Shown: positions 5,597 to 63,891, counted from the stretch's first letter. The stretch is 64,000 nt of DNA from Acidobacteriota bacterium (GCA_040005235.1 JBDTZG010000028.1:6940-70939), one strand, 5' to 3'. The notes: generated by a model from the sequence alone, not told the origin. Numbers and translations: made by a program.

Positions 5597-5600
5597 GGGG

Positions 5601-48114: not shown

Positions 48115-48165
48115 GACCCCCGCCTTTGGGTCCAGCTATTTGGAGGGTGATTCTAGTCTGGTTGC

Positions 48166-48427: not shown

Positions 48428-49888
48428 GTGTCGCAAAATCCTGTGCCGCTGCTTGCCGTGGTGTTGCGGAATCTCCGCGAGCGAGCCGGCTGGACCCAAG
48501 TCCGGCTCGAACGCGAGGCTCGCCTCAGCAAGGGATCGCTCTGCCGGCTGGAGAAGGGCAGCCAGACGGTCGATCGTTTCCTGCTCAATCGGCTGGCGAA
48601 GGTGATGAGAATCGCCGAGGGTGACGTGGAACAGGCGCTCGCAGTGCTGGAGCAGCTCCCGGCGGAGACCGGCGCCGGTTCGTCCGCGGACCTGCCGGTT
48701 CGCGACCGGCAGACGATCGAAACCGTCAGCGCGCGCTTTTCCCGCATGGTTCGCGAGAAGGCCCAGAACCGAATCGGGGGGAAGGTCCGCGCCCGGCGCT
48801 GGCGTCTCGACCGCGCGGCGGCCGCCGTGGCGTGGCAGCGGCTGCGCAAAATGCCCTCCGAGGATCGCCGGCTGATCGTTAAAGCGGTTGAGGCCTTTCA
48901 CACCTGGGCGGTGGTGGAACGGCTTTGCGAGGAGAGCGTAAGGGCGGCGGCCAGCGATATGGAGGAGGCCCGTAGGCTGGCGCAGCTTGCCCGGCAGGCC
49001 TCGACGGCCGCGAGCGGTGCCGAGCGAAGATATAAGTCGCTCGAAAATTACGCGGCGGCCTTCGAAGCGAACGCCTGGTGCGCTGCCGGCGAATTTCGGA
49101 AAGCCGAGCAGATTTTTGCCGAGGTCGATGCGCTCCATGGAGAAGGGCTGGACATCGCGGCAGTACCGGTCGATTGGGCCAGGCCACTGATCTTTCGAGC
49201 GGTGCTTATGATTTATCGGGCGAACCTCGATCCGGCATTGGAATGGCTGAACGAGGCGCTTTCGCTCACTCGCTCGCCGACCGTCAAGACTTGGGCGTTA
49301 ATCTGGCGAGCCGCTGTGCTCAAGCGGAAGCTCCAATTTCCCGCGGCGCTTGAGGAGCTGGAAAAGGCTCGGCCGTACGCCGAGCTTGCAGGCGATGCCC
49401 GGCTTCGATGGGCCATCGCCTTCAATGAAGCGGGTTATTTATGCGAAGCCGGCCATTTGGCGGAGGCTGCCGCCCGCCTTCCAGCCCTGAAGCTGGCAGC
49501 GTTGGAGCTCGGAGGAGCTCTGGATCGCCTGCGGCTCCGCTGGTTGACCGCGAGAGTGGCTGCTGCTTCAGGCCTGTTCCAGGAAGCCGCGACGAACCTC
49601 TCCGAGGTTTGGAATGCCTTTGCCGACCGGAACCTCTGGCTCGACGCGGCGATCGCGGTTCTCGAGCTGGCCAGCATCAACCTGGAGATGGGTCTGTCTG
49701 CCCAGGTCAAGAAGCTCGCCACGGCATCTGCTCACGTCTTCGCGGCGCAGACCCTGCCCGACCACCTTCTCGCGGCGGTTCGACTATTCTGGCAGGCCGC
49801 CCTTCAGGAAGCGGCCACTTCACAAATGGCGCGACAGCTGGTTGGGGACCTTCGCCGCGCCATGGTGGCAAACGCCGAAGCCTCCTGA
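48428..49888 (+). CDS. long XRE-HTH regulator with helical-repeat (TPR-like) C-terminal domain (R1)
   Basis: HTH LRNLRERAGWTQVRLEREARLSKGSLCRLEKG. Family signature FHTWAVVERLCEESV. About 300 aa of helical repeats. GTG 48428 has RBS GAGGAG; the track start is TTG 48404. Confidence 0.75.
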   Translation: MSQNPVPLLAVVLRNLRERAGWTQVRLEREARLSKGSLCRLEKGSQTVDRFLLNRLAKVMRIAEGDVEQALAVLEQLPAETGAGSSADLPVRDRQTIETVSARFSRMVREKAQNRIGGKVRARRWRLDRAAAAVAWQRLRKMPSEDRRLIVKAVEAFHTWAVVERLCEESVRAAASDMEEARRLAQLARQASTAASGAERRYKSLENYAAAFEANAWCAAGEFRKAEQIFAEVDALHGEGLDIAAVPVDWARPLIFRAVLMIYRANLDPALEWLNEALSLTRSPTVKTWALIWRAAVLKRKLQFPAALEELEKARPYAELAGDARLRWAIAFNEAGYLCEAGHLAEAAARLPALKLAALELGGALDRLRLRWLTARVAAASGLFQEAATNLSEVWNAFADRNLWLDAAIAVLELASINLEMGLSAQVKKLATASAHVFAAQTLPDHLLAAVRLFWQAALQEAATSQMARQLVGDLRRAMVANAEAS

Positions 49889-49907
49889 AGTCGTCGTCTC
49901 GCTTGGG

Positions 49908-50195
49908 CTAGGTCCCACACAGACCGTTCGGGTTGATCTCGCAGCCGACTTCGCCGAGAGGAGGCTTACTTCTCGGGCGACCGGAGTCGGAAGCACTGCG
50001 TCCGTCTGGGCTTGCGCCGCGGCGCCCGCTGGGCTCGATCTCGCAACCGCTCGGCGCCCACAGCGCGGAAAAGAATCTCCCGGCTTTGGCGAGCAGGTTC
50101 CCGAGATCCCACGGTGCGGCGGAGGCCTGGGTCGGGAAGGCGAGGACCACGACGAGAAGCAAGAGCGGCAGACGGCGGGGCGACGAAGCGGACAT
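49908..50195 (-). CDS. small secreted Cys-loop repeat peptide (pepA, 95 aa)
   Basis: Signal peptide MSASSPRRLPLLLLVVVLAFPTQASA, then FFSALW, module GCEIEPSGRRGAS and the terminal GCEINPNGLCGT. Paralogous to 58620-58952. Confidence 0.65.
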   Translation of the reverse strand: MSASSPRRLPLLLLVVVLAFPTQASAAPWDLGNLLAKAGRFFSALWAPSGCEIEPSGRRGASPDGRSASDSGRPRSKPPLGEVGCEINPNGLCGT

Positions 50196-50395
50196 GACCG
50201 ACTCCTATTCCGAGGGGACCGGCGCCGCGGCCTCCATGGCCGAACGGGCACCCTGCGAGTTCTTCCAGGCGCGCCTGGGCGAAGCTTGGACGCAAAATTT
50301 TGTGCTGCCAGGCGTACGGTGGGGTCTATCTTAGGAGCAAGCCCCGCCCTGCACGCTCTTTCGATACGATTCCCTCCAGAAACTCGGGAGGTGAC

Positions 50396-51220
50396 ATGAA
50401 CGACGCCTTGGATCGCCGCGCGGCAGGCTTGGTGATGCAGTTGTTTCGCTTCATGGCCGGCCGCCACCAGCACGACCTGAGCGAACGGACCGGGATCGAC
50501 ATAAAGCGGATTTCGCGTTACGAGCAGGGAAAAGTTCTGCCTCTTCGGCCGACGCTCGAACGACTCGCTGCGGGCGTCGGCGTCTCCGCGACCCGGCTCG
50601 ATCAGCTTCTCGCGTTGATTCGCACCGTGTGCGCCGAGGGCGAGGCGGCGACCGCCCAAAAGGAGCACGCCACAGCAGACCCCGACGAGTCCGATTGGCC
50701 GGACGATCTCGCCGAGCTGGCGGCGGAGATCGCCGAAGACCTACAGCCCGAGATTTACCAAGCCCTGAAGGAATTGAACGCCGAGCTGAACGCGCCGCCT
50801 CCGCCACTCGCCCCGGAAGCGGCGCGCGCCCAGGCTCGGGAGCTATGGGGAAGGTTCGAACCCTTGCCGGATCGCGTTCGCCGCCTGGTGATCGAACATG
50901 GCAAGGAGTACCAAACCTGGGCCTTTTGCGAACGGCTCTGCGAAGCAAGCCTCGACGCCGGATCGCGCGCGCCGGAGGACGGTCAGGCCTTGGCCGACCT
51001 GGCGCTCTCGGTCGCCGAGGCCGCCCAAGGGTCCGACGTGCTGCGCCAGCGCCTGACCGCCTTCGCCCTCGCCTGCGCCGCCCACGCGGATGTCCTCGCC
51101 GGGGACTCGGAAGAGGCCGCCGAGAAGCTGGGCCGGGCCAAGGCGCTCTGGACGGCCGGGGACGGCACCGACGATCTCGACCTCGGCCAGATCGCCGATC
51201 TGGTGCCCGCCGACTCGTAA
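50396..51220 (+). CDS. short XRE-HTH regulator paralog (R2)
   Basis: RBS GGGAGG lies before ATG 50396. HTH HQHDLSERTGIDIKRISRYEQG. Signature YQTWAFCERLCEASL. It lacks the long C-terminal repeat domain. Confidence 0.7.
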   Translation: MNDALDRRAAGLVMQLFRFMAGRHQHDLSERTGIDIKRISRYEQGKVLPLRPTLERLAAGVGVSATRLDQLLALIRTVCAEGEAATAQKEHATADPDESDWPDDLAELAAEIAEDLQPEIYQALKELNAELNAPPPPLAPEAARAQARELWGRFEPLPDRVRRLVIEHGKEYQTWAFCERLCEASLDAGSRAPEDGQALADLALSVAEAAQGSDVLRQRLTAFALACAAHADVLAGDSEEAAEKLGRAKALWTAGDGTDDLDLGQIADLVPADS

Positions 51221-51229
51221 GGAGTCCCC

Positions 51230-51631
51230 TCAGTTCGGCGCCCGCCGACTTGCGTCCGGCGGAAGCTCCGGCGGCGGCGGGCCGAGACGGCGCTCCAGGT
51301 CGGCGATCTTCTGTTCGAGATCTTCCGCCAGGATTTCGAGAGCCTGACAGAGCCGGTCCTCTTCCTCGGTCACCGTCGAGAGCCGCCGGGTCGCGGCGAG
51401 CCCGGCGAACGCCTGCTTTGTATGCCAGAGGTCGTCGATGCCGGCGCGCGTTCCCGCCTTGAGCCACGGTTCTCCGAACCCCGAGCCGTCTTCCAGCTCC
51501 AGCGCTTCCTCGGCGATCTTTTCGCAGGCATCCTGGACGCGTTGGCGCAAACCCGGCCGGGTGAAATGGACCAGGACCGACTCGCGGAACGGCGCCATCT
51601 CTCTCCAGCGGCGCTTGATCGGGTTGGTCAT
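51230..51631 (-). CDS. hypothetical cytoplasmic protein (S1)
   Basis: 133 aa, with a 4-nt overlap with the upstream S2 gene. No recognisable motif. Confidence 0.5.
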   Translation of the reverse strand: MTNPIKRRWREMAPFRESVLVHFTRPGLRQRVQDACEKIAEEALELEDGSGFGEPWLKAGTRAGIDDLWHTKQAFAGLAATRRLSTVTEEEDRLCQALEILAEDLEQKIADLERRLGPPPPELPPDASRRAPN

Positions 51632-52062
51632 CCTGGGGATGCCCGTCGCTCAGTCCGCACGGCGGCCCGGTGCCGGCCCAGGCGTCTCTCCTGCACCAGA
51701 CCCAGGAATGCGTCCCGATTCGCGGCCCCATGGGTCATCAGCGCCGCGAAGACCCGAAGGTTCAGACGGGCACCTTCCGGGGGCGGTGTACCTTCCAAGA
51801 GGGCGAGCAGTCGGGCGGCCAGCTCCGGCAAGATGCCCCCTCGCCCCTGGCGCAACAATACGGTTCCCAGCTCGATGTAGGCGTCCGCCGCTGCCATCAC
51901 CTCGCCCGATGCGCGCCAGGTTCCCGCGGCGCGGCCGAACAGTCGCGCCGCCTCTTCGAGGTTCCCATCGTCCCGCTCGCGCTCGGCCCGGTCGAAGATC
52001 TCTCCGGCGGCCCGCCGCAACTCGCCGGGTGCGAGGGGAGAGGCCGGACTTACAGAGGCCAT
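51628..52062 (-). CDS. hypothetical helical protein (S2), resembles the C-terminal module of R1/R3
   Basis: 144 aa. ...DDGNLEEAARLFGRAAG...AADAYIELGTVLLRQG...LAARLLALL... parallels the R1 and R3 C-termini and paralog S3. Confidence 0.55.
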   Translation of the reverse strand: MASVSPASPLAPGELRRAAGEIFDRAERERDDGNLEEAARLFGRAAGTWRASGEVMAAADAYIELGTVLLRQGRGGILPELAARLLALLEGTPPPEGARLNLRVFAALMTHGAANRDAFLGLVQERRLGRHRAAVRTERRASPG

Positions 52063-52499
52063 TCCATTCCTTTTCTGTGCTTCCGGACGTCCGCGAGCAA
52101 CTCGCCTAGTAACGGCGAGCTCGGCGGGGTGATCTCGAGCAAGAGCAAAAGGTTGGAAAAAAGCTCGATTTCCGGCGGCGCCACGGCGAGCGTCGCCGGC
52201 TTGGCGGCGAGCCAGTCCGGCAGGTCGACACGTTCAAGGCGATAGACCGCGGCCAGCGAGAGCGCCGCTAGCCCTTCGAGCCAGGGTTGCTCCGCTTTGC
52301 CGAAGGCATGGACGGCGAGAATAAAACTCTCTTCTGCCTGGGACAGGTTGCCCGCCGCCGCGGCGCGCTCGGCAAAATCCATCGAGCGCCAAGCCAACCG
52401 GAAAAAAGCCGGATGCGCCGGTTCCTTAGCCGGCGCATCCGCGGGCCCTGCGAGCGCGAGAGGGGGTGCGGGTCGCCCGCAGGGGAAAAAGGAGTCCAT
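52050..52499 (-). CDS. hypothetical helical protein (S3), paralog of S2
   Basis: 149 aa. ...AAGNLSQAEESFILAVHAF...LAALSLAAVYRLE... has the same layout as S2. 13-nt overlap with S2. Confidence 0.5.
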   Translation of the reverse strand: MDSFFPCGRPAPPLALAGPADAPAKEPAHPAFFRLAWRSMDFAERAAAAGNLSQAEESFILAVHAFGKAEQPWLEGLAALSLAAVYRLERVDLPDWLAAKPATLAVAPPEIELFSNLLLLLEITPPSSPLLGELLADVRKHRKGMEWPL

Positions 52500-52694
52500 G
52501 CGTGCGAGGGTAGGTCCAGGGATTCAGCTTTCGCGCTAGCCTGCCGCTCGTGGATGGCGTAGTTATCCATTTCGATAACATTTCTTGGGATGCCGGGGAA
52601 CTTTCCCAGCTCGTCATGCCGAGCGAGAGCTCTGCACACTCCAGCGGAGGCGGGGGGGAGTTCCGGCACTACATTCAATATTGCAGGAACCACC

Positions 52695-53810
52695 CTAGGG
52701 CTGCAGGCCGCCGTTCCACGAAGTGTCCTTGAGCAGATCGGCCCAATTCACGTCGGCGCTCAGCACATTGAATTCGTCGCTGCCGTCCGAGAAGACGTTG
52801 AGGTGTGCCGCCCGCCGAAAGACCTCCTCGCCTTGAATTTCGAAGCCGGGCCGTAGCGGCGGCAAGATGTAGAGGCCCATCCACGGACTACCGGTTGGGT
52901 TACAGCCCGTCTGGCCGGAAGCGGTGCAGAAGGGGAGCGCCGTGATTTCGCCCGTCGTCAAGCGTCCCTGGGTATCGGTGTGCAGGCGCAGCAGGAAGGG
53001 GATTTCCAGGTCACTGTAGACACACACTCCGTCGTCATCGCAGGAAAGGGCAGAGTCATAGGCGTCAATCCGGTAAGTCAGCGGCTCCTCCGCCCGGTAG
53101 AGAGCGGTCTTGTAGGAAATAAAGGCGCAGAACGGATTGGGAATGGGTTCCGCCAGGCAGCCTGTCGGCCGAACCGTCCGCGCGAGGATCGAGTAGACCT
53201 TGAGGTCAAAGTCGGTCACTTCGGTATGGCAGGGAGAGAGTAGGTCGTCGACGGTCAAACCGCGTCCCGCGGTGTCCGCGTGGTCCGCCTGCGCGTCCTG
53301 GAGAGTGGTGATCCGAATCGAATTCTTCGGCTGAAAAGGGTCTGGCGGCTCCCGGGACAGGATGAGATCCACGAGCATCGAGAACCGGGTCGTCCCCTCG
53401 AGATTCGAAGACGCATCCCGCCGAACCAAGGTGGCCTGGGGCCGGCGATCCCTTCGGGGGTTCAAGAAGTCCTCGTCCTCGCGAAGGATCAGGTCGAACG
53501 CCAGCTGTTTCTCCTGTCGCTCGCGGTCGCCTTGAACCGTGGTGTGTCGCAACTGGCTGGTGCTGGCCAATCCTCTGTAGGTGCCGCCATTGGCGCTCGA
53601 CCGCCAGAGGAGGAGGCTCGACTCCCCGTAGGAAACCCCCATGCGGTGCAGCAACCTCCCCATTTGCCGCTCTTCGCAGGCGACCTGCTCGGACGTGAGG
53701 GGGCGGCCGAAGGGCTGGGCCACAGCATTGCGTACCGCACATGCGCCGAAGACCAGGGCCACGGCCCAAGCCGGCACCCGCCACCCTACGGCTGCAGGCC
53801 GCCGTTCCAC
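52695..53810 (-). CDS. secreted Cys-containing protein of unknown function (P1), tandem paralog of P2
   Basis: Collinear with P2 over the full length (QPFG.PLTSEQVACEERQMGRLLHRMGVSYGE ... NWADLLKDTSWNGGLQP). GTG start at 53810; an alternative is GTG 53777. Confidence 0.7.
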   Translation of the reverse strand: MERRPAAVGWRVPAWAVALVFGACAVRNAVAQPFGRPLTSEQVACEERQMGRLLHRMGVSYGESSLLLWRSSANGGTYRGLASTSQLRHTTVQGDRERQEKQLAFDLILREDEDFLNPRRDRRPQATLVRRDASSNLEGTTRFSMLVDLILSREPPDPFQPKNSIRITTLQDAQADHADTAGRGLTVDDLLSPCHTEVTDFDLKVYSILARTVRPTGCLAEPIPNPFCAFISYKTALYRAEEPLTYRIDAYDSALSCDDDGVCVYSDLEIPFLLRLHTDTQGRLTTGEITALPFCTASGQTGCNPTGSPWMGLYILPPLRPGFEIQGEEVFRRAAHLNVFSDGSDEFNVLSADVNWADLLKDTSWNGGLQP

Positions 53811-54889
53811 GAGGTGTCCTTGAGCAGGTCCGCCCAGTTGACGTCGGCACGTAGAATGTTCAAGTCAGGAAAGGCAACCGAGAAAAGGTTCAGGTGGGCC
53901 GCACGCCGAAAGACTTCCTCTCCCTGAACCTCGATGCCGGGTCTCAGGGGAGGTAAGACGTAAAGGCCCATCCAAGGACTGTCCTCCGGGCTGCATCCGG
54001 TTTGGCCCGACGCTGTGCAAAACGGCAGCAGCGAGACCTCCCCGGATGCCAACCGGCCTTGGGCGTCGGCTTGGATGCGAAACAGCAGTGAATTCTGCTC
54101 GTCGCTGTAAACGCACACGCCGTCTTCGTCGCAGGACAACGAGGAGAGATATACGTCGGCCCGATAGGTCAGCGGCTCCTCCGCGCGGTAGAACGCGGTT
54201 TTAAAGGAAATGAATCCGCAGACCGGGTTGGGAATGGGTTCCGCCAGGCAGCCCGTCGGCCGCACCGTCCGGGCGAGGATCGAGTAGACCTTTAGGTCGA
54301 AATCGGTCACCTCAGTATGGCAGGTATTCAAAAGGTCGTCGACGGTCAGACCGCGTCCGGCGGTGTCCGCGTGGTCCTCCGGCGCTTCCTGGAGGGTGGT
54401 GATCCGGATCGAATTCTTTGGGTGGAAAGGGTCGGGCGGCTCCGGGGACAGGATGAGATCTACGAGCATCGAGAACCGGGTCGTTCCCATCGGGTCGAGG
54501 TTCGACGCCGCGTCCCGCCGGACCAGCGTCGCCTGCGGGCGGCGTTCCCGCCGGGGGTTCAAGAAGTCTTCATCGGCGCGGAGAATCAGGTCAAACGCCA
54601 GCTGTTTCTCATCGCGCATCCGGATGTCTACGGTCGTCGTAGGATCGAAATAAAGGTGGTCCGTACTGGCCAAGCCTCTGTAGCTGCCGCCGTTGGCCGC
54701 CGATCGCCAAAGGTAGAGGCCAGCCTCGCCATATGAGACCCCCATACGATGAAGCAATCGCCCCATCTGGCGCTCCTCGCAGGCGACCTGCTCGGACGTG
54801 AGGGGGCTGCCGAAGGGCTGGGCCGCCATAATTCCCGGGGCGATGATTACCAGGAAGAGAATCGCGAACAACGCGCTTTTGGGTTTCAT
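53786..54889 (-). CDS. secreted Cys-containing protein of unknown function (P2)
   Basis: ATG 54889 with signal peptide MKPKSALFAILFLVIIAPGIMAAQ. The track ORF's N-terminal extension is rejected. Confidence 0.75.
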   Translation of the reverse strand: MKPKSALFAILFLVIIAPGIMAAQPFGSPLTSEQVACEERQMGRLLHRMGVSYGEAGLYLWRSAANGGSYRGLASTDHLYFDPTTTVDIRMRDEKQLAFDLILRADEDFLNPRRERRPQATLVRRDAASNLDPMGTTRFSMLVDLILSPEPPDPFHPKNSIRITTLQEAPEDHADTAGRGLTVDDLLNTCHTEVTDFDLKVYSILARTVRPTGCLAEPIPNPVCGFISFKTAFYRAEEPLTYRADVYLSSLSCDEDGVCVYSDEQNSLLFRIQADAQGRLASGEVSLLPFCTASGQTGCSPEDSPWMGLYVLPPLRPGIEVQGEEVFRRAAHLNLFSVAFPDLNILRADVNWADLLKDTSWNGGLQP

Positions 54890-55098
54890 AGCTTCCCCGC
54901 TGAACCTGTCTTCTGTTGGACCTGGAGAACGATGTCGAAGGAATAGAACGGCGAAACGATCTCGCAACTTCCCCCGTTGCAGGTTTTGTGGATGGGATCC
55001 CAATTGATGGTCTGGACTGCCGTCATGGTTCCCGTTGCCGGCGTGACCCACTGGACCTCGAACCGATCGGCCGTCGGTCCGAGGTTCAAGAGCGTCAA
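54886..55098 (-). CDS. small protein X, translationally coupled to P2; the true N-terminus is probably further upstream
   Basis: ATGA overlap with the P2 start. The frame stays open and protein-like up to about 55320, but the first ATG/GTG/TTG in frame is TTG 55098. Confidence 0.5.
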   Translation of the reverse strand: MTLLNLGPTADRFEVQWVTPATGTMTAVQTINWDPIHKTCNGGSCEIVSPFYSFDIVLQVQQKTGSAGKL

Positions 55099-55321
55099 GC
55101 GGTCTTGGTATTTCTGCGCCAGCCAGATCCGCGCGTCGAAAGCGTTGCGCGGGAGAAATATCGGTTTGGCGCTCGGAGACGTGGACTCTTTGGGGCATCC
55201 GTTCGCAGTGAACTCCGCCTCGGGCGCGTTCGATGCCGTGCTGGCCGCGCAGCGGATCGTGCTGTGGTGTAGATAGAGCAGGAAAAGCCGGTTCGGCTCC
55301 GGTCTCCGACCTGGATCGGCA

Positions 55322-56821
55322 TCAATCGGTATCCGTCGGAGATTGAGGGCCTTGATGTAGGTCGGGTCTCGCAGCGCTATTGGGCAGCCCTCCAGACCAA
55401 GCTGACCGGGACGAGGTGAGGCGCCCGAGCGGCAGCGCGTTGACGAATTTCTTGAGTACGCCGAGTTGGCGCCGAATGGTCGCGGGGGTGTTCGGGTCGC
55501 CTCCGGAGAGATATCCGAAATGGTCGTAGGTGGCGCCCTGGTCGAACAGAAACTCCCAGGCTTCGGCGCGCGCCGGTTCGGCGAGCTTTTCTGTCAGGGC
55601 GCCGTTGGTATGGGCGCGGGTGCCGCTCTTGCCTCCGACATCTGGGTTGCCGATGAACTGACCGGCGCCTTTGGTCGTAAACGGCTGTACCGCCACCAAA
55701 TGCCCGCCGGCGGCCAAGCGCGGGTATTTCGCTTCCTGAAAGGTGACCTGGGCAATCATGTCGCGCTGCCACTTGGCGACCTCGAGGGGATCGACGGTCT
55801 GGGCCTCCGGCTCGTTGGCGATCTCCCAATAGACGGTGTCGAAGCACCAGAGTTCTTGGACCGTCCACTCGATCACTTTGGCCTGGGCCACGCGCATGCG
55901 CTCGTTCGTCAGGGCCTCCTGGGTGCCTCGCGTGTCGTGGGTCACGAAGTACTCGGGCTTTGAGAACTTCACCGTCTCGAACGTCCCGTCCGACTTCGGC
56001 ATCATCCCCTTGCCGCCCCAGGGACCCTGGGAGAAGAAATCTCCCTCGAACGGCGCGAAGATGGTCACTTCGACGATCATCTTCCTCGGGTCCTGGGCGT
56101 AGGCCACGACATCGCGCAAGCGTTGGAAATACCGCGTGTTCGGCTTGTCCAGGCGCCAGAACGGGTAGGCGTTGGCCGGGAAGTTGGCGCAGTCGGGGCT
56201 CGCCACGGCGCTCGGGCAATAGAGGAACGGGACGTTGTTCGGGTTTTTCTCTCCGGCCAGGGCGATCCAGAGGCGGAGCTTGTTCAGGCCCGCTTCGAAG
56301 GCGGCTTGGATCGTCGTGGGGTAGTTGGTCCAGTTGCATTTGTCGGAGGAGAGTTCGAGGTGGCAGCCGTTGTCAGCCGAGACGCCGACGAGGGTCTGGA
56401 TCGTGTTGCGGTACGAAAAGTAGCGCGAGGCGAAAGGCAGGGCGGCGGTCGTTTTGCCGATCTTGATCGGGGTGATCGTCTGCGTGATGTTGCCGCAACC
56501 GGTGGCGGAAATCGTGGGATCGGCCGGAACGTCGGGGTCGGTGCCCAGCAGCTCGGGCGGATAGAGATCCTCCGAGTCGAGCGAATTCGGGTCGCCGTCG
56601 TAGGGGAGCAAGTCGTCGCCGAGGGTCCACAGCTCGGCGGGCAAGCTGGGGTCGGTGGTCGAGCCACCGTCGCCGAAGACGGAAGAGAGGGGTGGCTCTT
56701 CTTCGGGTCCGGGTGGGGGTTGGGCGGGAAGGGGGGCACCGACCGAGAGGAACGAAAGAAAGATGAAGGCGAGGGTCGCACGGTGGCAGAGGGATAAGAG
56801 TAGCGAGCGAGTTCGGTCCAC
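55322..56821 (-). CDS. secreted glycoside hydrolase clan GH-A (GH5-like) candidate
   Basis: Signal peptide, a Pro/Asp-rich linker and a TIM-barrel-like domain with YWEIANEPE (the NEP acid/base motif). GTG start at 56821 with RBS AAAGGA. Confidence 0.5.
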   Translation of the reverse strand: MDRTRSLLLSLCHRATLAFIFLSFLSVGAPLPAQPPPGPEEEPPLSSVFGDGGSTTDPSLPAELWTLGDDLLPYDGDPNSLDSEDLYPPELLGTDPDVPADPTISATGCGNITQTITPIKIGKTTAALPFASRYFSYRNTIQTLVGVSADNGCHLELSSDKCNWTNYPTTIQAAFEAGLNKLRLWIALAGEKNPNNVPFLYCPSAVASPDCANFPANAYPFWRLDKPNTRYFQRLRDVVAYAQDPRKMIVEVTIFAPFEGDFFSQGPWGGKGMMPKSDGTFETVKFSKPEYFVTHDTRGTQEALTNERMRVAQAKVIEWTVQELWCFDTVYWEIANEPEAQTVDPLEVAKWQRDMIAQVTFQEAKYPRLAAGGHLVAVQPFTTKGAGQFIGNPDVGGKSGTRAHTNGALTEKLAEPARAEAWEFLFDQGATYDHFGYLSGGDPNTPATIRRQLGVLKKFVNALPLGRLTSSRSAWSGGLPNSAARPDLHQGPQSPTDTD

Positions 56822-57041
56822 GGCGCTGTCCTTTCAAGGTTTCCGCGTTACGCGGAAGACTGCTGGAACGGTAGCAGCGCCGACGATATTTTCGCAAACA
56901 ATTTCATCACATTCGGTATGGCTTTCAGATTTCTGCGGCTCTGGGGTGACCTGGGAACTGAGACGGATGGGAGCGGGCGTTTTCTGCCCGCGGGGCGATG
57001 ACGATGAACGGTGAGGACCCTAAGAGCCAAATGCTCCCAAT

Positions 57042-57060
57042 GAGGAAACCAGGTTTCCTC
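57042..57060. promoter_or_regulatory. perfect 19-bp palindrome in the divergent GH5-like/R3 intergenic region
   Basis: GAGGAAACC-A-GGTTTCCTC, about 100 bp upstream of the R3 start. Confidence 0.4.
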
Positions 57061-57158
57061 TCTGTGCGGCGGGCAGGCGTCCCAATTTATTTGTTGTCAC
57101 GAAAAGTGCCTCAGCGGCAACAAGATGTATTAAAGACACCAGACCCCGGAGAACCGCG

Positions 57159-58613
57159 ATGCCCAAGGTGGACCTGCCGCCGACGAATGCGGCGCTATTG
57201 ATTTTGCGCATCCTGTGTCGCCTGACACAGGATGAGTTCGGCGAGCTGACCGGCATGAAGAGCCGGATCGTCGAGATCGAGAATGGCCGGTATGTCCTTA
57301 AGCGCGCCGAGCTCGAAGATCTGGTGGAGGAGCTCAAGGTGTCGGCCTACGCGGTGCCGGTCGCCCTCGGCCTATCGGAGCTGGTGTTGCCGTCGACCGA
57401 CAAGACCCCCCACCCCTGGGAGGCGACGCCCGACGCGCGGTTTCAGGCCGAGCGCGCGACCCTCGAATCGTCCGCCATCGTGCGCCGTCTGTTCCTCGCC
57501 GAAGCGCGCGCGGAGCGCTACGCGGCGGACCGCGAGGAGGCCGAGCGCCTCTGGAAGCTGCTTGCGCCGCTCAATCGCGACCGGCGGCGGGTGATGGCCC
57601 GGATCGTCGATTTCTCGACCTGGGCGGTGGTCGAGCGCCTCTGCATCGAGAGCCTCAGGGGAGCGCCTCGGGATCCCGGGGCCGCCCGCTCGCTCGCCGA
57701 GCTGGCCGTTGAGGTGGCCCAGAGGATTCCGCCGCTGCCCAGGTTCAGCGATCGGGTGGAAGGGTACGCCCAGGCCCACTTGGGCAACGCCTTTCGAGTC
57801 GGGAACGACTTTGACGAGGCGGTTCGCGCTTTCGCGCTCGTCGCGAAACTTTGGATCGAGTTCCTGCCGGGCGAGGCCTGCCCGTTTGACGTGACGCTGA
57901 TCCCCGACCTAGAAGCTTCTCTGCGCCGCGATCAGCGTCAATTCTCCTTAGCGTTCGCTGGGCACGACCGGGCTCTTTCCTTCGCTGTCGAGGATGCGAT
58001 CCGCGGGCGCATCCTCCTCAATAAGGCAGTGACATTCGAGCATTCCGGCGATCCAGTTGGTGCGGTTGCAACTCTCAGCGCTGCTCAGCCTCTTATCGAC
58101 ACGAGCAACGAAACCCGGCTGGGTTGTGTCGCGCGTTTCAACTTGGCGGTCAACCTCCTCCATCTTGGAAACGCCTTAGATGCCGAGCCGCTGATCGCCG
58201 AGGTGCGGGCGCTTGCGATCGAACAGCGAAACGAGCTTGACCTGATCCGGGTCCTTTGGCTCTCCGGCCGCCTTGCCGCCGCGCAAGGAGATCGGGCGAA
58301 GGCGATGGTCTCGATCGATGACGCGGCCTGTCGCTTCGCCGAACAGGGCCTCGGATATGACGCCGCACTGGCGGTGCTCGACCTCGCGGGGCTGCTCTTG
58401 GAAGAAGGCAACCCGAGAGAGGCAGCCCGGAGGGTGGCCGAGGTGCAACCCACTTTCCACGTGCGAAACATTCACCGGGAGGAACTGGCGAGCCTGGTTC
58501 TGTTCCTCCAAGCCGTCGAAACCGAAGCGGCGACCGCCGCGCTGGCGCGCGCGGCGGCCGAGGCCTGGAGGTTGTTCGGCACGCCCGTTCCTTTCGGAAG
58601 TCTGGCCGACTGA
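57159..58613 (+). CDS. long XRE-HTH regulator with helical-repeat (TPR-like) C-terminal domain (R3)
   Basis: HTH LTQDEFGELTGMKSRIVEIENG. Signature FSTWAVVERLCIESL. The C-terminal repeats are collinear with R1. Confidence 0.75.
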   Translation: MPKVDLPPTNAALLILRILCRLTQDEFGELTGMKSRIVEIENGRYVLKRAELEDLVEELKVSAYAVPVALGLSELVLPSTDKTPHPWEATPDARFQAERATLESSAIVRRLFLAEARAERYAADREEAERLWKLLAPLNRDRRRVMARIVDFSTWAVVERLCIESLRGAPRDPGAARSLAELAVEVAQRIPPLPRFSDRVEGYAQAHLGNAFRVGNDFDEAVRAFALVAKLWIEFLPGEACPFDVTLIPDLEASLRRDQRQFSLAFAGHDRALSFAVEDAIRGRILLNKAVTFEHSGDPVGAVATLSAAQPLIDTSNETRLGCVARFNLAVNLLHLGNALDAEPLIAEVRALAIEQRNELDLIRVLWLSGRLAAAQGDRAKAMVSIDDAACRFAEQGLGYDAALAVLDLAGLLLEEGNPREAARRVAEVQPTFHVRNIHREELASLVLFLQAVETEAATAALARAAAEAWRLFGTPVPFGSLAD

Positions 58614-58619
58614 AATGAA

Positions 58620-58952
58620 CTACTGGCCGCAGCGACCCTCTGGGTCGACGACGCAACCCGCGTCGCGAAGGATCGGCGCCGGGGCACTCGACGAACCGCA
58701 GCGGCCGTAGGGATCGAGGCTGCAGCCCACGTCGCTGAGGATCGGCACCGGGGCGCTCGACGGGCCGCGGCCGCCGTGGGGGTCGAGGCTGCAGCCCTCC
58801 TCCTCCCAGAGGGCCGAAAGAAACGACCAGCCGCGGGCGAACAGGTCGGGGAGGGTGCGATCGAGCGGCAAGGCGCCGGCCGGGAAGGCACTGAGGAGGA
58901 AGAGGGCTAGCAGAGCGACGGCGAGGGCGAGGTGACGCTTCGGTTGGGGCAT
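58620..58952 (-). CDS. small secreted Cys-loop repeat peptide (pepB, 110 aa)
   Basis: Signal peptide MPQPKRHLALAVALLALFLLSAFPAGA, then FLSALW and three modules: GCSLDPHGGRGPSS, GCSLDPYGRCGSS and the terminal GCVVDPEGRCGQ. The modules are encoded by 69-bp tandem DNA repeats. Confidence 0.7.
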   Translation of the reverse strand: MPQPKRHLALAVALLALFLLSAFPAGALPLDRTLPDLFARGWSFLSALWEEEGCSLDPHGGRGPSSAPVPILSDVGCSLDPYGRCGSSSAPAPILRDAGCVVDPEGRCGQ

Positions 58953-59028
58953 GGCGGTGGGCTCCTGGTCAGCCCGGGAACCTCCGGCCGGGATGGCCGG
59001 CGGCCCGGTACGAAGGGGTTCAGAGGGT

Positions 59029-59046
59029 AACCCAAGTTTTTGGGTT
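59029..59046. promoter_or_regulatory. AT-rich inverted repeat between pepB and R4
   Basis: AACCCAA-GTTT-TTGGGTT, with perfect 7-bp arms, 22 bp upstream of the R4 ATG. Confidence 0.4.
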
Positions 59047-59067
59047 CATTTTTCTCTTGGAGGGATC

Positions 59068-59955
59068 ATGGAACGGAAATCCGGCAGAACGCGAGACGTT
59101 CGCTCAGGACTCAGTGCGGCACCCACCCCTGGCGCCGCCGCGAAGGGGGGAAGGGCCGCGGCCAAAGCGCGGGACGCCGAGTACTCGGCTCTGTTGGTCC
59201 GGTATATGGATGCGACGGTCGGCCCGCGGCACGACCAGTTCGCGGAGTTGGTCGAGATCAGCGCGGCGCGGGCGAGCCTCTACCGCTACGGCTACAAGGT
59301 GCCCCGGCCCGAGACGAAGGCCCGTTTCTCCGGCCGGGTCGGGCTGCCGATCGAATGGTTCGAGGCGATGACCGCCGACTCGTTGTTTCTCCGCGGCAAA
59401 AGCTCAAAGCCGGCGGGAAGTACTCCCGCAGCCCTGGCGGAAGACCTCTCCCGCCGGCTCGCGGGCCAGCTCGCCCCGCGGTTCGCGGCGTTGCGCAGCG
59501 TAGCCCCCGCCGCCCCTCCTCCTCCTCCTCCTTCGCTCGAACGGGCGGCGGCCGATCGAGCCGAGGCGGACCGGCATTGGACCGAAATCGAGCCGCTCAC
59601 CGCCGCCGAGCGCGCCCTCGCGGTGCCGGAGATCCCGAGGTTCCACTCCTGGGCGCTGGTCGAGCTGCTCTGCGGAAAAAGTGTAGAGGCCGCGCCCGTG
59701 TCGCCGGCCGAAGCGCTCGCCCTCGCCAAGCTGGCCATACGACTGGCCCGCCGGGTCCAAGCAAGCCAAGGATTTCGCGACCGCCTGATGGGCTACGCCC
59801 TCCTCCACTCGGCCGCCGCACTCAAGAGCCTGAACGACCTGCCGCGAGCCCGGGAAGCCCGCGCGCGCGGGCTACGGCTTTTCGCGGCGGGGCGGAAGGA
59901 GGATCCGGGGTTGCTGGATGAAGCGATCGCCGAGGGACTCGCGTCGTCGTCGTAG
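59068..59955 (+). CDS. short XRE-HTH regulator paralog (R4)
   Basis: RBS GGAGGG lies before ATG 59068. HTH-like HDQFAELVEISAARASLYRYG. Signature FHSWALVELLCGKSV. Confidence 0.65.
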   Translation: MERKSGRTRDVRSGLSAAPTPGAAAKGGRAAAKARDAEYSALLVRYMDATVGPRHDQFAELVEISAARASLYRYGYKVPRPETKARFSGRVGLPIEWFEAMTADSLFLRGKSSKPAGSTPAALAEDLSRRLAGQLAPRFAALRSVAPAAPPPPPPSLERAAADRAEADRHWTEIEPLTAAERALAVPEIPRFHSWALVELLCGKSVEAAPVSPAEALALAKLAIRLARRVQASQGFRDRLMGYALLHSAAALKSLNDLPRAREARARGLRLFAAGRKEDPGLLDEAIAEGLASSS

Positions 59956-59985
59956 GGCCGGCGGCATTCTGGGAAAGGGGAGCGC

Positions 59986-60013
59986 GGGCGCCGTCGAGGA
60001 GCGGGCGGCGCCC
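59986..60013. terminator. GC hairpin between convergent R4 and Q1 (bidirectional terminator candidate)
   Basis: GGGCGCCG-N12-CGGCGCCC. An identical copy lies 722 bp away. Confidence 0.45.
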
Positions 60014-60023
60014 GGGAATGCAT

Positions 60024-60584
60024 TCAGGGTGTGGATGCCTGAGCGAGGAAGGCACCAAAGACATCAGTAGGCACGTGGTCGATCTGGGCGCCGGGGCTGT
60101 TTGCGGCTTCAGAGAAGAAGTCCTCTATCGCTTGGACCGACCGAGCGAACGCATCGCTGCAAATTGTTGGAAATGCAGCGCCGAAGCCGAAGGTTTTTGT
60201 CACTTTGCTCGTGCCTTTCCTACCGAACCAAGTGACCGCGGAGACGAAGACTTCGCCTTGTCCTGGAACGTCCCGATAAGCGCAGTGGCCACGCTCGGAA
60301 CCGAATCGGTTCTCGGACAGGGCCTGCTGTAGCCGGCGGACGGCATCCGAAGTACCCCGGGCTCGAATCAGGGTCGTTTGGCCGGGCGACCGCTGGGTGC
60401 TGATCAACAGGCCATCGCGAAAGATGACGTAGTCGATATTTGTCTTGAAGCCGGTCACCTCGTCGTCGACGTGGGCCGTGCGACGAACGAGGTAGCTTTC
60501 GGGTGCCGGCGTCTGAGCCAGCGCCAGCGTGGGCAGGATCAGTGCCAGGGCATAGAGCCAGAAAACGGGTCTAGTTGCTCTCAT
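60024..60584 (-). CDS. secreted protein of unknown function (Q1), tandem paralog of Q2
   Basis: ATG 60584 with RBS GGAGG. Signal peptide ...LALILPTLALAQ. Near-identical to Q2 over 186 aa. Confidence 0.7.
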   Translation of the reverse strand: MRATRPVFWLYALALILPTLALAQTPAPESYLVRRTAHVDDEVTGFKTNIDYVIFRDGLLISTQRSPGQTTLIRARGTSDAVRRLQQALSENRFGSERGHCAYRDVPGQGEVFVSAVTWFGRKGTSKVTKTFGFGAAFPTICSDAFARSVQAIEDFFSEAANSPGAQIDHVPTDVFGAFLAQASTP

Positions 60585-60707
60585 ACGACACCTCCGGGGC
60601 GAGTATTCCACGGAACTACACGAACAATACCGGTTTGCCGGTTACAGCTTGTCAGTGGAGCGAGACATCCGGTTGTCGCCCAGGATTCTTACGGCGAAGG
60701 GACAAGC

Positions 60708-60745: not shown

Positions 60746-61306
60746 TCAGGGTATGGATGCCTGAGCGAGGAAGGCACCAAAGACATCTGTAGGCACGTGG
60801 TCGATCTGGGCGCCGGGACTGTTCGCGGCCTCAAAGAAGAAATCCGCGATCGCTCGGACCGAGCGAGCAAATGACTCGCTGCATTGGGACGGGAATGCGG
60901 CGCCAACGCCGAAAGTTTTCGTCACCTGGCTGGTTCCCGTTCTTCCGAACCAAGTTACCGCTGAGACAAAGACTTCGCCTTGCCCCGGGAAGTCGCGATA
61001 CGAGCAGCGATTACCCGCGGTGCCGAACCGGTTCTGGGAAAGCACCTGCTGCAGCCTTCGGACGGCATCTGCCGTGCCCCGGGCTCGAATCAGGGTCGTT
61101 TGGCCCGGCGACCGTTGGGTGCTGATCAATAGGCCGTCTCGAAAGATGACGTAGTCGATATTTGTCTTGAAGCCGGTCACCTCGTCATCGACGTGGGCCG
61201 TCCTCCGGACGAGGTAGCTCTCGGCTGCCGGTGTTTGTGCCAGGGCCAACGTTGGCGGGTTCAGCCCCAGGGTACAGATCCAGAAAAGGTAACTTCTCGC
61301 TCTCAT
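60746..61306 (-). CDS. secreted protein of unknown function (Q2)
   Basis: ATG 61306 with RBS GGAGG. Signal peptide and the same sequence family as Q1. Confidence 0.7.
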   Translation of the reverse strand: MRARSYLFWICTLGLNPPTLALAQTPAAESYLVRRTAHVDDEVTGFKTNIDYVIFRDGLLISTQRSPGQTTLIRARGTADAVRRLQQVLSQNRFGTAGNRCSYRDFPGQGEVFVSAVTWFGRTGTSQVTKTFGVGAAFPSQCSESFARSVRAIADFFFEAANSPGAQIDHVPTDVFGAFLAQASIP

Positions 61307-61332
61307 TCGCCACCTCCAAGCCACAAAGTGCT

Positions 61333-62958
61333 CTAAGGTACTACCTGAACGATACCAGTTTGCCAGTTACAGCTCGCACCCGCAGGGCCAAAGTTCTCAC
61401 CGGCAAGCCACAGGCTCCCGCCAGATGGATCAGCCTGCGCACCTGAGTAGTCGCCCGTTTTGCCTGAGCTTCCCCCTCTTGAGCAGGTTCCCGGCCGCAG
61501 GACGTTCAGGGGTGAGAAAGCCGCAGAGCCCGAGACCCTCGTGAGCCAGCCCGAACCGTGATGCAAGCTAGCCGACCCCATGTGCAGCGCCAGCCCTATT
61601 CGGCCGCTGTTCGTCACAGCGATCGAGGGCATCCAGAGGAAGTTATTAGCCGACAAGCCAACGGTGGTTTGCTCGGCGAGGGGCGCCAGAAATCCGCTGG
61701 TCGTAGGTGCAAGGTTGAAGCGGAGGACCCGGAAGCAAGCTTCATTGTTTCCAGCGGCGATCTGGCATCCGGTAGTCTGAACAGCCCAGATGGAATCACC
61801 GATTCCCGCGACTTGGAGGATTCGGGAATCCCCCGTCTCCAGAGAGATTCCGGCCGGTTGGGGGGCGTCGGGAGGCGTCGTATACATCCGCAGGCCCAGA
61901 ACTTCGGTCATCTCTAGGCGCGGAGCCGTCGTTGCGCCATCGCGAATCCTCCAGACCCGATAACCCTTCGCGGGCGATCCCTTCGCGCTGATCAGATATC
62001 CGGAGGTGCCGCCGGTGGCGCTGGGGAGCGTGTAGTGCTGCACGGGCTGGAGAGTTTGGGCGTTCGCGGCTTCAAACGCGGCAAGCGGGAGAGGGCGGAA
62101 GGTCACAGCGGCAGGAAGTGCCGGGCAAGTTGCGACGTTATTGACCAAAGCTGCCTTGGCTAGTATCCGGAGAAGTGGATATCCACGCGATACATTGGCG
62201 TTATCCACCACGAACTGATTCGTCGTCACCATCACCACGTCTCGCCCCACGCCCAGGCTCGGGTAGTCGGCAATCGCCTTGTCGGCCGTGGTGATGTCCG
62301 TTCGGGCCTCCGTGGAATACCGGCACCACTGTGCGGCATCCAGGCCTGTCGGGTTGGCGCTCCGCGACACGGCGAGAAACAGCTTTTGCGGGTCGCCGTT
62401 GACCACCTTCTCCAGGACGACGACAAAGAAACGCTGGGAGTTGCGATCGTAGAAGACCTTGGGGTCGAAGACCCCCGGCGACTCGGGGATTCCGAAGAAT
62501 GCCGCGGTGGTCCGTGTCACACGGATCGTTCCGTCCGTATTGAACAGCCGCAGGGCGGCGTTGACCGCTTCGAGGACTCGATCGGTGCTGCGGGCGATGC
62601 CGACGTCTGGAGGCGTCTTCTGGCCGCCGGCCAGGTAGTCGAGCCCCGGAAAGCTCGCCGCGAGTGTCGCCGTGCCGGAGCGCGACGCAAGAGCCAGCAC
62701 CACATCGGGCGGCTCGGCGTTGGGATCTATGAGCGCCGCTTCCTGCGCCTTCGTTAGTTCCTCAGGCGTCAAGCCGAAGGGTTCCGGCATCTCTTCGGCC
62801 ACCGAATCGCCGGGGGCCGGGTCGGGGTAGTCCACCTCGGGCAGCGGCTCGACCGGCGCTTCCATCTCCGGTTCGAAGATTTCAACGTCCTGGCTGCGCC
62901 CGGGCCAGGCGGCGAGGACGATTGCGACGCAGAAAATACCGAGCACTCTCGAATACAT
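61333..62958 (-). CDS. large secreted protein of unknown function (Y)
   Basis: Signal peptide MYSRVLGIFCVAIVLAAWPGRSQ and an acidic Pro-rich linker. The body is beta-rich and has no motif I can name. Confidence 0.65.
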   Translation of the reverse strand: MYSRVLGIFCVAIVLAAWPGRSQDVEIFEPEMEAPVEPLPEVDYPDPAPGDSVAEEMPEPFGLTPEELTKAQEAALIDPNAEPPDVVLALASRSGTATLAASFPGLDYLAGGQKTPPDVGIARSTDRVLEAVNAALRLFNTDGTIRVTRTTAAFFGIPESPGVFDPKVFYDRNSQRFFVVVLEKVVNGDPQKLFLAVSRSANPTGLDAAQWCRYSTEARTDITTADKAIADYPSLGVGRDVVMVTTNQFVVDNANVSRGYPLLRILAKAALVNNVATCPALPAAVTFRPLPLAAFEAANAQTLQPVQHYTLPSATGGTSGYLISAKGSPAKGYRVWRIRDGATTAPRLEMTEVLGLRMYTTPPDAPQPAGISLETGDSRILQVAGIGDSIWAVQTTGCQIAAGNNEACFRVLRFNLAPTTSGFLAPLAEQTTVGLSANNFLWMPSIAVTNSGRIGLALHMGSASLHHGSGWLTRVSGSAAFSPLNVLRPGTCSRGGSSGKTGDYSGAQADPSGGSLWLAGENFGPAGASCNWQTGIVQVVP

Positions 62959-63129: not shown

Positions 63130-63891
63130 TCACCCCCGGTGACGTTGCAGCAATGAGAACAGGTAGCGGATGCGGGTGAGAAGGTCGTCGGCCGCCCGCT
63201 CGAAGGCGGTTTCCCGCTCCTTGTCGGTGCCTTCGACGCCGGAAGGGTCGGGGATGCTCCAATGGATCCGGTTACGCGCACCGGGGAAGATGGGGCAGGA
63301 CTCGCGGGCGTTGTCGCAGACCGAAATCACATAGTCGAACGGTTGGTCGATAAATTCGTCCAGGGGCTTGGACCTCTGGCCGCCGATGTCGATGCCCCGG
63401 GCTGCCATGGTCTTGATCGCCAGCGGGTGCACACGGGTGACCTCGGTGCCGGCGCTCCGCACTTCGACCTGGTCGCCGGCCATGTGGCGCAAGATCCCCT
63501 CGGCCATCTGAGATCGCGCGCTGTTGTGGGTACAAAGGAAGAGCACCCGGCCCCGCCTTCCTGCCTCGGTCAGCGGCAGCTCCCGGGTGTCGGGCTCACT
63601 CCCAAGACCTGGATGCAAAATTTCACCTGTGCTCATGAGCATCCCCTTCAGTCGGTCCAGATCCAAGCTGTAGTAGACATCCCGTCGATCCGCGGCGCTG
63701 CGCCGCTCCTTGACCAGAGCGAATTCCCGCAGCTTCCGAAGGTGGTAGGAGACGAGGTTCTGCGGTTGCTGGAGCACCCCGACCAGCTCCTGCACGCGCC
63801 GATCGCTGTACGCCAGAGCTTCGAGAAGCTTCCAGCGTTGCTCATCGGCAAGGAGCTTGAGGAACGGGGGAAAGGCCGAGGTTGCGTCCAT
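63130..63891 (-). CDS. ArsR-family HTH fused to LMW-PTP-type arsenate reductase
   Basis: N-terminal ArsR wHTH (RVQELVGVLQQPQNLVSYHLRKLREFALV). C-terminal ArsC/LMW-PTP P-loop VLFLCTHNSARSQMAEG (CX5R) and ...DYVISVCD... Confidence 0.85.
   Translation of the reverse strand: MDATSAFPPFLKLLADEQRWKLLEALAYSDRRVQELVGVLQQPQNLVSYHLRKLREFALVKERRSAADRRDVYYSLDLDRLKGMLMSTGEILHPGLGSEPDTRELPLTEAGRRGRVLFLCTHNSARSQMAEGILRHMAGDQVEVRSAGTEVTRVHPLAIKTMAARGIDIGGQRSKPLDEFIDQPFDYVISVCDNARESCPIFPGARNRIHWSIPDPSGVEGTDKERETAFERAADDLLTRIRYLFSLLQRHRG

Follow-up and report, generated by a model that had tools for sequence, protein, structure and literature searches.

The stretch of 64,000 nucleotides considered here (the window) comes from an Acidobacteriota bacterium (GCA_040005235.1 JBDTZG010000028.1:6940-70939), and all positions are counted from its first letter. 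At positions 57159-59955 it carries three genes, R3, pepB and R4, which we call module 2; they are predicted to encode a cytoplasmic regulator, an exported pro-peptide and a second regulator. The same gene order occurs in module 1 of the window (R1, pepA and R2). Our analysis showed that module 2 is one copy of a cassette that has been widely multiplied in Thermoanaerobaculia and Holophagales (Acidobacteriota). In the following, R stands for the regulator with a helix-turn-helix (HTH) domain and tetratricopeptide repeats (TPR), that is R1 and R3, pep for the peptide gene, and R' for the second regulator, that is R2 and R4. We favour the reading, with a probability of roughly 45%, that the cassette is a peptide-signalling unit resembling the RRNPP systems but residing in a diderm phylum. 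The peptide family and the RRNPP-like layout in an unexpected phylum are new; the plan of an HTH plus TPR regulator with a peptide is already known.

R3 occupies 57159-58613 on the plus strand (484 aa; NCBI tag ABJC13_14675). The pepB gene lies at 58620-58952 on the minus strand (110 aa) with its stop codon at 58620-58622, and the two genes converge with a stop-to-stop gap of 6 nt (58614-58619). A divergent intergenic control region of 115 bp (58953-59067) separates pepB from R4, which runs from 59068 to 59955 on the plus strand (295 aa) and begins with an ATG behind a GGAGGG ribosome-binding site. The open reading frame (ORF) list contains an alternative ATG for R4 at 58951; the 296 aa called for the ortholog in a close relative fit the start at 59068. 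An earlier note on this DNA had given the R3 stop at 58613, the 6-nt gap, the R4 start at 59068 and the 115-bp region, and the ORF list and the raw sequence agree with it to the base. Module 1 has the same layout and is located directly 3' of mraZ and the dcw cluster. It consists of R1 (48404-49888, plus strand, 494 aa, start codon uncertain), pepA (49908-50195, minus strand, 95 aa), which converges with R1 over 19 nt, and the shortened second regulator R2 (50396-51220, plus strand, 274 aa).

The proteins of the two modules are homologous and strongly diverged, as the earlier note had stated. BLASTP searches with composition-based statistics gave 31% identity over 351 aa for R3 and R1 (E 6e-36), 28% over 214 aa for R4 and R2 (E 6e-11) and 35% for pepB and pepA (E 8e-12). 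The two regulators of module 2 are themselves related, with 38% identity between R3 and R4 (E 4e-9) over a common central helix region with the motif W-A-x-V-E-R-L-C. The close relative mentioned above (GCA_038250865.1, called L001) also has both modules beside mraZ, and its dcw genes are 96-99% identical to those of the window on the nucleotide level. Each module has its own ortholog in L001, and R1 and R3 are found in different branches of a large family; from these sequence relationships we conclude that the duplication of the module is old, in line with the claim that module 2 is not a recent copy. In all six genes of both modules the G+C content in the proposed frame is higher at the third than at the second codon position (GC3 > GC2), and the ratio of non-synonymous to synonymous divergence (dN/dS) against the L001 orthologs is 0.19-0.39. 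This range of dN/dS indicates that the six genes are coding and under purifying selection.

A word-index search for relatives found 254 homologs of R3 and 20 homologs of pepB, and the two frequently shared a contig. From a genome scan with 264 relatives of the regulator 79 loci were kept, and these and the window were searched with profiles of the regulator and the peptide. All of the kept loci are from Thermoanaerobaculia, Holophagales or unclassified Acidobacteriota metagenome-assembled genomes. Several cassettes can occur in one genome: at least four genomes supply 4 loci each within the top 80. A metagenome scan for further orthologs of module 2 yielded one distant locus.

The kept loci and the window together contain 81 peptide genes, and 79 of these are convergent with a full-length regulator with an XRE-type HTH and TPRs. 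The stop-to-stop distance ranges from -6 to +125 nt (78 peptide genes) with 4 nt as the commonest value, and the stop codons overlap in 10 loci. A divergent second regulator is present at 67 of the 81 peptide genes, both regulators at 66. The 67 R' proteins come in three forms: 21 are full-length, 32 are cut at about position 258 of the family profile, like R2 and R4, and 14 have little beyond the HTH. R' is closest to another R' in 43 of 53 cases, with the shortened "mid" and the "full" forms interleaved. This pattern suggests that R and R' are old sister lineages in which truncation occurred repeatedly. The earlier note had proposed that the gene order is conserved under selection, and the recurrence of the triad across these related Acidobacteriota loci bears this out; on the sequence comparison the three-gene arrangement is ancient and no repeated accident.

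Some of these loci carry further genes beside R. In 22 loci (L009-L076; for example L010 3478-3951 and L036 3521-3958) a gene that is divergent from R and about 100-700 nt upstream of it encodes a small acidic protein, which is marked by the motif TEIRSVIECVLxDxIxPAIxDL; some copies have an N-terminal H-x3-C-x2-C segment that resembles an anti-sigma zinc finger. In some cases a TPR-only ORF of 355-733 aa (profile positions ~87-152 to ~436-488) comes after the acidic protein, and such an upstream ORF on the minus strand occurs in about 14 loci. Both the acidic protein and the upstream TPR-only ORF are absent from the window.

The peptide proteins share one architecture. In pepB a predicted Sec-type signal (aa 1-27) is made of the n-region MPQPKRH, a hydrophobic core of 16 residues and a PAGA site; it is followed by a Trp-rich amphipathic helix (aa 34-49; LFARGWSFLSALW, in pepA and pepB) and by three GC-x-[LV]-D-P-x-G-x-(C) repeats, which are joined by SSAPxPIL(S/R)D linkers. 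The repeats form nine-residue loops: loop 1, CSLDPHGGR (58767-58793), which has lost the closing Cys, loop 2, CSLDPYGRC (58698-58724), and loop 3, CVVDPEGRC (58629-58655), all on the minus strand and the latter two of the C-x7-C type. The protein ends two residues (GQ) after the last Cys. pepA contains a signal with an ASA site and two repeats with the loops CEIEPSGRR and CEINPNGLC; both proteins together follow the pattern GC-x-[ILV]-[DEN]-P-x-G-x-C. A low-confidence AlphaFold2 model of pepB with a predicted local distance difference test (pLDDT) value of 55 has helices at 4-22 and 34-49 and disordered repeats apart from small hairpins, which points to a non-globular precursor. This prediction and the position of the last loop at the C-terminus suit a precursor that is processed.

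An exhaustive profile search revealed 1146 clusters of such peptides at 50% identity with E<=1e-3, including 383 with E<=1e-10. They have in common the Sec signal, the Trp-rich helix and 2-5 GC-x-[IL]-D-P-x-G-x-C loops, and they are labeled only as "hypothetical protein" in the sources. The median length in the family is 98 aa. A simple rule for signal peptides was passed by 59 of 81 family members, and most of the failures are miscalled start codons. In 46 of 77 members exactly two residues follow the last loop, which is placed at the C-terminus. Neither pepA nor pepB matched a Pfam or NCBIfam model; one distant family member (P0145) passed the threshold of DUF6799 (31.1 versus 26.8 bits). 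The consensus of 156 closed loops is C1-x2-[I/L]3-D4-P5-x6-G7-x8-C9 with almost invariant D, P and G and with variable positions 2, 6 and 8. At these variable positions loops from the same precursor are more alike than loops from different precursors (0.48 versus a shuffled mean of 0.29, >10 standard deviations); the effect is strongest at position 2 (0.50 versus 0.135).

The regulator R3 has an N-terminal XRE-type HTH (~aa 16-65, nt 57204-57353), followed by a long linker helix and a conserved WAVVERLC helix, and a TPR-like superhelix at ~aa 196-473 (nt 57744-58577), both on the plus strand. The AlphaFold model (pLDDT 86, predicted template modelling score 0.77) places these parts in the order HTH, flexible segment, 30-residue linker helix and about eight TPR-like helix pairs. 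The best structural matches are peptide-binding TPR domains, first those of the LGN/Pins type with 15-18% identity, a likeness on the fold level only; these eukaryotic proteins are scaffolds without a DNA-binding domain. Further matches include RapI (18.5), a phage Rap with bound pheromone (18.1), NprR with NprX (17.9), RapH (17.8), domain III of MalT (15.4), PlcR (15.3) and AimR (13.8). The modeled fold is consistent with an RRNPP-like receptor, albeit not diagnostic of it.

On the sequence level the regulators are recognized mainly by their HTH. R1 and R2 match Pfam HTH_31 with 35.8 and 33.0 bits (cut-off 27), and R3 matches HTH_19 with 25.9 bits, below the cut-off of 30.2. R4 has no Pfam or NCBIfam match and is picked up only by the family profile and a faint match to a PHROG repressor. 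A profile search of PDB sequences with the regulator found the HTH domains of ClgR, HipB and the 434 repressor, and also generic RRNPP matches (TPR of RapH, E 8.5e-4; HTH of PlcR, E 0.005), among which the HTH alone is convincing. Across Pfam, NCBIfam, PADLOC and PHROGs there was no match for the peptides or, apart from the faint PHROG repressor, for R4; the other proteins gave generic HTH/TPR matches. R2 and R4 align to profile positions 6 to ~253-257, which means that they retain HTH and linker as well as the first helical subdomain and that the main TPR array is absent. R4, which is 85% identical to its ortholog in L001, is composed of a basic N-terminal tail, a divergent XRE-like HTH, a linker and a WALVELLC helical subdomain, and it ends where the main TPR array of R3 begins. 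R2 and R4 are a truncated paralogous lineage without most of the TPR and are not equivalent to R1 and R3.

The control regions contain conserved palindromes. Between pepB and R4 the intergenic region shares 98% identity with L001 (58969-59068), whereas the adjoining coding DNA is 70-89% identical. It includes the palindrome AACCCAA-GTTT-TTGGGTT (59029-59046; core CCCAA-N4-TTGGG), a candidate operator that has a single exact match in the window and whose CCCAA..TTGGG core is kept in the orthologous loci L001, L002 and L003. An alternative interpretation of this element is a weak hairpin on the plus strand that is followed by a T-rich tail and would serve as a terminator or attenuator. A second candidate operator is a perfect 9-bp inverted repeat, GAGGAAACC-A-GGTTTCCTC, at 57042-57060, about 100 nt 5' of R3; it is unique in the window, and its GAAACC-A-GGTTTC core is conserved in L001 and L002. 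Module 1 has a different palindromic motif, GCAAAATTTTGTGC, in the pepA/R2 intergenic region (50292-50305), with related copies near the start of R1 (48315-48328 and 48433-48446). Motifs of this type occur 4 times in the window against an expectation of 0.41, and all but one of them are in control regions of module 1; the L001 version is GCAAAATTTCGTGC. Since each module has its own conserved palindromes, the two modules appear to carry different candidate operators.

Two further features were seen in these regions. The pepB/R4 intergenic region contains a GC-rich dyad, CCTCCGGCC-N5-GGCCGGCGG (58981-59003), of which the CCGGCC/GGCCGG stem is kept in L002 and the loop differs; the dyad could be an RNA hairpin in the 5' leader of pepB or a second protein-binding site. 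The segment 48202-48350 upstream of R1, which includes the palindrome copy at 48315-48328, has either been lost from L001 or diverged beyond alignment (19% identity).

The 6-nt gap between R3 and pepB leaves no room for a terminator; hence the transcripts of the two genes are predicted to overlap. Between 56800 and 60100 a scan for sigma-70 promoters found none, and terminator-like sites were not enriched (4 found versus 2.3 expected). An Rfam scan of 48000-60200 detected no RNA family at E<=1.

A comparison of the modules with L001 revealed an uneven divergence. In module 1 one block of only 50-69% identity extends from the TPR of R1 through pepA and the intergenic region into the HTH of R2; in the rest of R2 the identity is back at 93-95%. 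The breakpoints of this hypervariable block (48950-50600) are inside R1 (~aa 180) and R2 (~aa 110), which implies that the regulators are chimeras generated by recombination. In module 2 there are two separate troughs, one at aa 238-340 of R3 (63-79%) and one at loops 2-3 of pepB (70-74%). The synonymous divergence (dS) is increased 3- to 10-fold in the diverged segments, with values of 1.3 and 2.9 in the TPR segments of the two regulators and of 0.7 and 1.1 in the loop regions of the peptides, and dN/dS does not exceed 0.5 in the diverged TPR and loop segments. For this single pair of genomes the pattern looks like old mosaic alleles that are shifted by recombination and not like positive selection on individual sites.

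The computational signature of RRNPP systems comprises a propeptide of 10-100 aa, Sec export, a receptor of 250-500 aa, TPRs and adjacent genes (PMC10075063). The cassette shows these five features: propeptides of 95 aa (pepA) and, slightly over the limit, 110 aa (pepB); a predicted Sec-type signal in both; receptors of 484 aa (R3) and 494 aa (R1); TPRs in the R3 model; and adjacency with gaps of 6 and 19 nt, which is found throughout the family. We favour the RRNPP-like reading because of this signature together with the conserved synteny, the several cassettes per genome, the separate lineage of R', the predicted non-globular precursor with its C-terminal last loop, the likeness of the loops within a precursor, the hypervariable TPR segments and loops and the module-specific palindromes.

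If this reading is correct, the pro-peptide would be exported and its signal peptide cut off, and one or more short loop peptides would be set free outside the cell. These peptides would build up with cell density, and the TPR domain of R would sense them. Both R and R' could then act on the palindromes of their module, which lie in the pep/R' region and upstream of R. This would create an autoregulatory loop in which R' tunes the shared promoter. The overlapping transcripts of R and pep may in addition make the expression of the two genes mutually antagonistic, by antisense or collision control. Each of the two modules would work as a channel of its own, and the channels would differ in their peptides and operators.

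Among the known systems, the RRNPP(A) pairs NprR-NprX and PlcR-PapR, and more distantly Rgg-SHP, PrgX and AimR-AimP, are the closest counterparts, and R has the HTH plus TPR receptor architecture of NprR and PlcR. Beyond generic HTH and TPR similarity no sequence homology is detectable, however, and judged by sequence the cassette falls outside the RRNPP family. It also differs in having a longer, Cys-rich peptide with tandem loops of the disulfide type, R' as a third gene, receptor and peptide genes that converge at near-zero spacing, and no linked importer of the Opp type; ligand binding is only presumed for the cassette. Another parallel is prgX/prgQ on the Enterococcus plasmid pCF10, where a peptide-responsive HTH regulator and a peptide gene have antisense-overlapping transcripts and form a bistable switch. 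The common element is an HTH regulator and a peptide gene with overlapping antisense transcripts, which are predicted here. While close opposing promoters produce the overlap in prgX/prgQ, in the cassette the 3' ends would collide, and the divergent promoter region is shared with R'.

Precursors with more than one peptide unit have been described in the phages phi3T and phi105, which have tandemly duplicated Phr propeptides (PMC11343458). The cassette resembles them in that one exported precursor contains several candidate mature peptides, and the fold matches of R3 include these Rap proteins in pheromone-bound form. Phr pheromones are linear 5-7-mers without cysteines, whereas the unit of the cassette has 9 residues, is bracketed by Cys and is repeated 2-5 times with conserved linkers. 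As for the divergence between relatives, the pherotype loci agrBDC, comCD and comQXP have hypervariable segments in both the receptor and the peptide. The cassette shows a similar concentration of divergence, with raised dS, in the putative ligand-binding part of the receptor and in the peptide loops of the genome pair compared. The receptors of the pherotype loci are membrane histidine kinases, however, whereas R is a cytoplasmic regulator, and no covariation was detected over 8 orthologs.

Several results weigh against the RRNPP-like reading. pepB and many other members of the family exceed the usual size of a propeptide. A search of the 4-kb flanks of the 79 loci turned up no recurrent importer, processing protease or other transport family. 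The host is a diderm Acidobacteriota and neither a Firmicute nor one of its mobile elements, to which the reports of RRNPPA genes have been restricted (PMC9765709, PMC10075063). None of the RRNPP-specific models in Pfam and NCBIfam was hit by the regulators at E<=1. The structural likeness is one of TPRs in general, as the eukaryotic LGN and subunits of APC score as high as Rap and NprR with the R3 model. The loop core I-D-P-x-G is nearly invariant across paralogs and leaves about three positions for specificity; this invariance hints at a common structural or enzymatic constraint.

The same holds for the search for coupling between regulator and peptide. In a mirror-tree analysis of 58 triads the distance between loops was correlated equally with the TPR, the HTH and R' (rho 0.31-0.38), and the partial rho for the TPR domain versus the loops was 0.07. 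Over 8 ortholog pairs of module 2 the divergence of R3 aa 238-340 was not correlated with that of the pepB loops (rho -0.05). The covariation test that the earlier note had suggested, between residues of the peptide core and of the regulator C-terminal domain, gave no TPR-specific signal. In 28 close pairs the least conserved structured segment was at profile positions 300-350, which include an inter-repeat loop; this is not diagnostic. The coupling tests neither support nor exclude a receptor-ligand relation. The earlier note had also suggested two orthogonal regulator/peptide specificities. This part of its claims is plausible on sequence grounds, as the loops and the palindromes differ between the modules, loops are alike within a precursor, and TPR segments and loops are hypervariable; the two covariation tests without a TPR-specific coupling speak against it.

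The main rival explanation, which we consider less likely than the signalling reading, is that the peptide is not a signal but the regulated product, that is a secreted or envelope-bound string of disulfide-closed beta-hairpin loops with, for example, an antimicrobial (defensin-like), metal- or Ca-binding, or adhesive function. It would be controlled by a local switch of R and R', and the TPR of R would sense something else, such as a metabolite, another protein or R'. XRE regulators commonly control an adjacent gene, and the C-x-I-D-P-x-G-x-C core, which is almost invariant over more than 150 loops, would fit a structural or binding motif with a common target. The flanks without a linked importer or processing gene and the covariation results also agree with a product, as do weak, sub-threshold Pfam matches to the fungal defensin Copsin and the one DUF6799 match above threshold. 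This explanation does not account for the fact that paralogous peptide genes keep their own TPR regulator at the stop codon (79 of 81), or for the hypervariable TPR segment and loops between nearly identical genomes. The peptide is furthermore predicted to be non-globular with its last loop at the C-terminus, and immunity or export genes of the bacteriocin type are not recurrent in the flanks.

It is quite improbable that the regulators form a regulator/anti-regulator pair, in which the TPR of R would contact R' or the unexported pre-peptide and the cassette would report its own synthesis or the secretion load instead of cell density, with R' as a ligand-blind competitor for the same operators or as a heterodimer partner. 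Proteins are common TPR ligands. R' has preserved HTH and linker together with the first helical subdomain, it was cut at the same boundary (~258) many times independently, as in the 32 "mid" forms, and the W-A-x-V-E-R-L-C helix is common to R and R'. Yet 14 R' proteins are nearly HTH-only and 21 are full-length, which argues against a single conserved interface between R and R', and the Sec signal argues for an action of the peptide outside the cytoplasm.

Very little speaks for pepB as the precursor of a ribosomally synthesized and post-translationally modified peptide (RiPP), a lanthipeptide or another thioether peptide, with Cys residues cross-linked by a tailoring enzyme and with R and R' as pathway regulators. 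The peptide has multiple cores and is rich in Cys, and genes for a LanC-like protein, a luciferase-like protein and a MacB-type transporter adjoin the R4 ortholog in L001. That cluster has a Cys-rich precursor of its own, however, and is missing from the window and the other loci, for which reason the RiPP reading was rejected. A tailoring enzyme (LanB/LanC/LanM, radical SAM or similar) is absent near either module in the window and none recurs in the 79 loci, a cleavable Sec signal is atypical of RiPP leaders, and the C-x7-C spacing suits simple disulfides. Anti-phage defense and phage modules found no support either, since scans of the six proteins with PADLOC and PHROGs gave weak generic HTH matches and no defense or phage family. 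The idea that homology and small ORF only reflect the base composition of a genome with ~66% GC and many long spurious ORFs on all strands has practically no probability and is refuted by the composition-corrected E-values, the GC3 pattern, dN/dS, the 1146 peptide clusters and 254 regulator homologs and the conserved synteny.

The surroundings of the modules differ between the window and L001. About 4.9 kb between the modules (52050-56980) are absent from L001, which has two small genes between R2 and R3. This extra DNA contains an ORF of 149 aa, two paralogous ORFs (52695-53810 and 53786-55198) that are 79% identical and have no Pfam match above cut-off, and an ORF of 499 aa (55322-56821) without a Pfam match. 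R2 is followed by three small genes on the minus strand (51230-52499; 133, 144 and 149 aa). The genes for 133 and 144 aa are kept in L001 and L002, where they immediately precede the R3 ortholog and point away from it. A faint likeness to the TPRs of the regulator family was seen in the proteins of 144 aa (E 0.005) and 149 aa (E 0.035), whose genes may belong to an extended module.

Immediately downstream of R4 the window has a pair of tandem duplicates, one of 195 aa (60024-60611) and one of 192 aa (60746-61324), which share 83% identity and lack a Pfam match; an orphan ORF of 541 aa (61333-62958) comes next. This stretch replaces the LanC-like cluster of L001, which is a candidate RiPP cluster at L001 positions 3995-8871 with genes for a Cys-rich peptide of 57 aa ending in SNCCCEPTSNQGGNGCYPKI, a LanC-like protein, a luciferase-like oxidoreductase and a MacB/FtsX transporter. 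At 63130-63891 the window encodes a fusion protein of 253 aa that combines an ArsR-type HTH with a low-molecular-weight phosphatase/arsenate-reductase domain. L001 has a stand-alone gene of 125 aa whose product shares 86% identity with the phosphatase part.

Peptide signalling with cytoplasmic TPR receptors is regarded as specific for Gram-positive bacteria, and the cassette is a testable candidate for such signalling elsewhere. Our literature searches found no report of RRNPP systems in Acidobacteria or other diderms, and no paper with the loop sequences. It consists of three short genes with definable peptides and palindromes and occurs in several copies per genome across the whole class. 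A tentative extension of the RRNPP-like reading is that the cassette would be the first peptide quorum sensing with a cytoplasmic receptor of the RRNPP type outside the Firmicutes. Such a system would have parallel channels within a genome, disulfide-cyclized nonapeptides released from multi-copy Sec precursors, a TPR sensor, tuning by a truncated paralog and a pherotype-like exchange of the TPR segment and the loops. Two points would hold without the signalling reading. The peptide family with more than 1100 clusters at 50% identity, for which Pfam and NCBIfam have no dedicated model, and its linked HTH plus TPR regulators represent a large type of regulon that has remained uncharacterized. 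The convergent gene pair without a terminator would in addition be a natural example of transcriptional interference that is built into the gene order. Acidobacteria are abundant and mostly uncultured soil bacteria in which cell communication is almost unstudied, and the cassette may offer an access to it.

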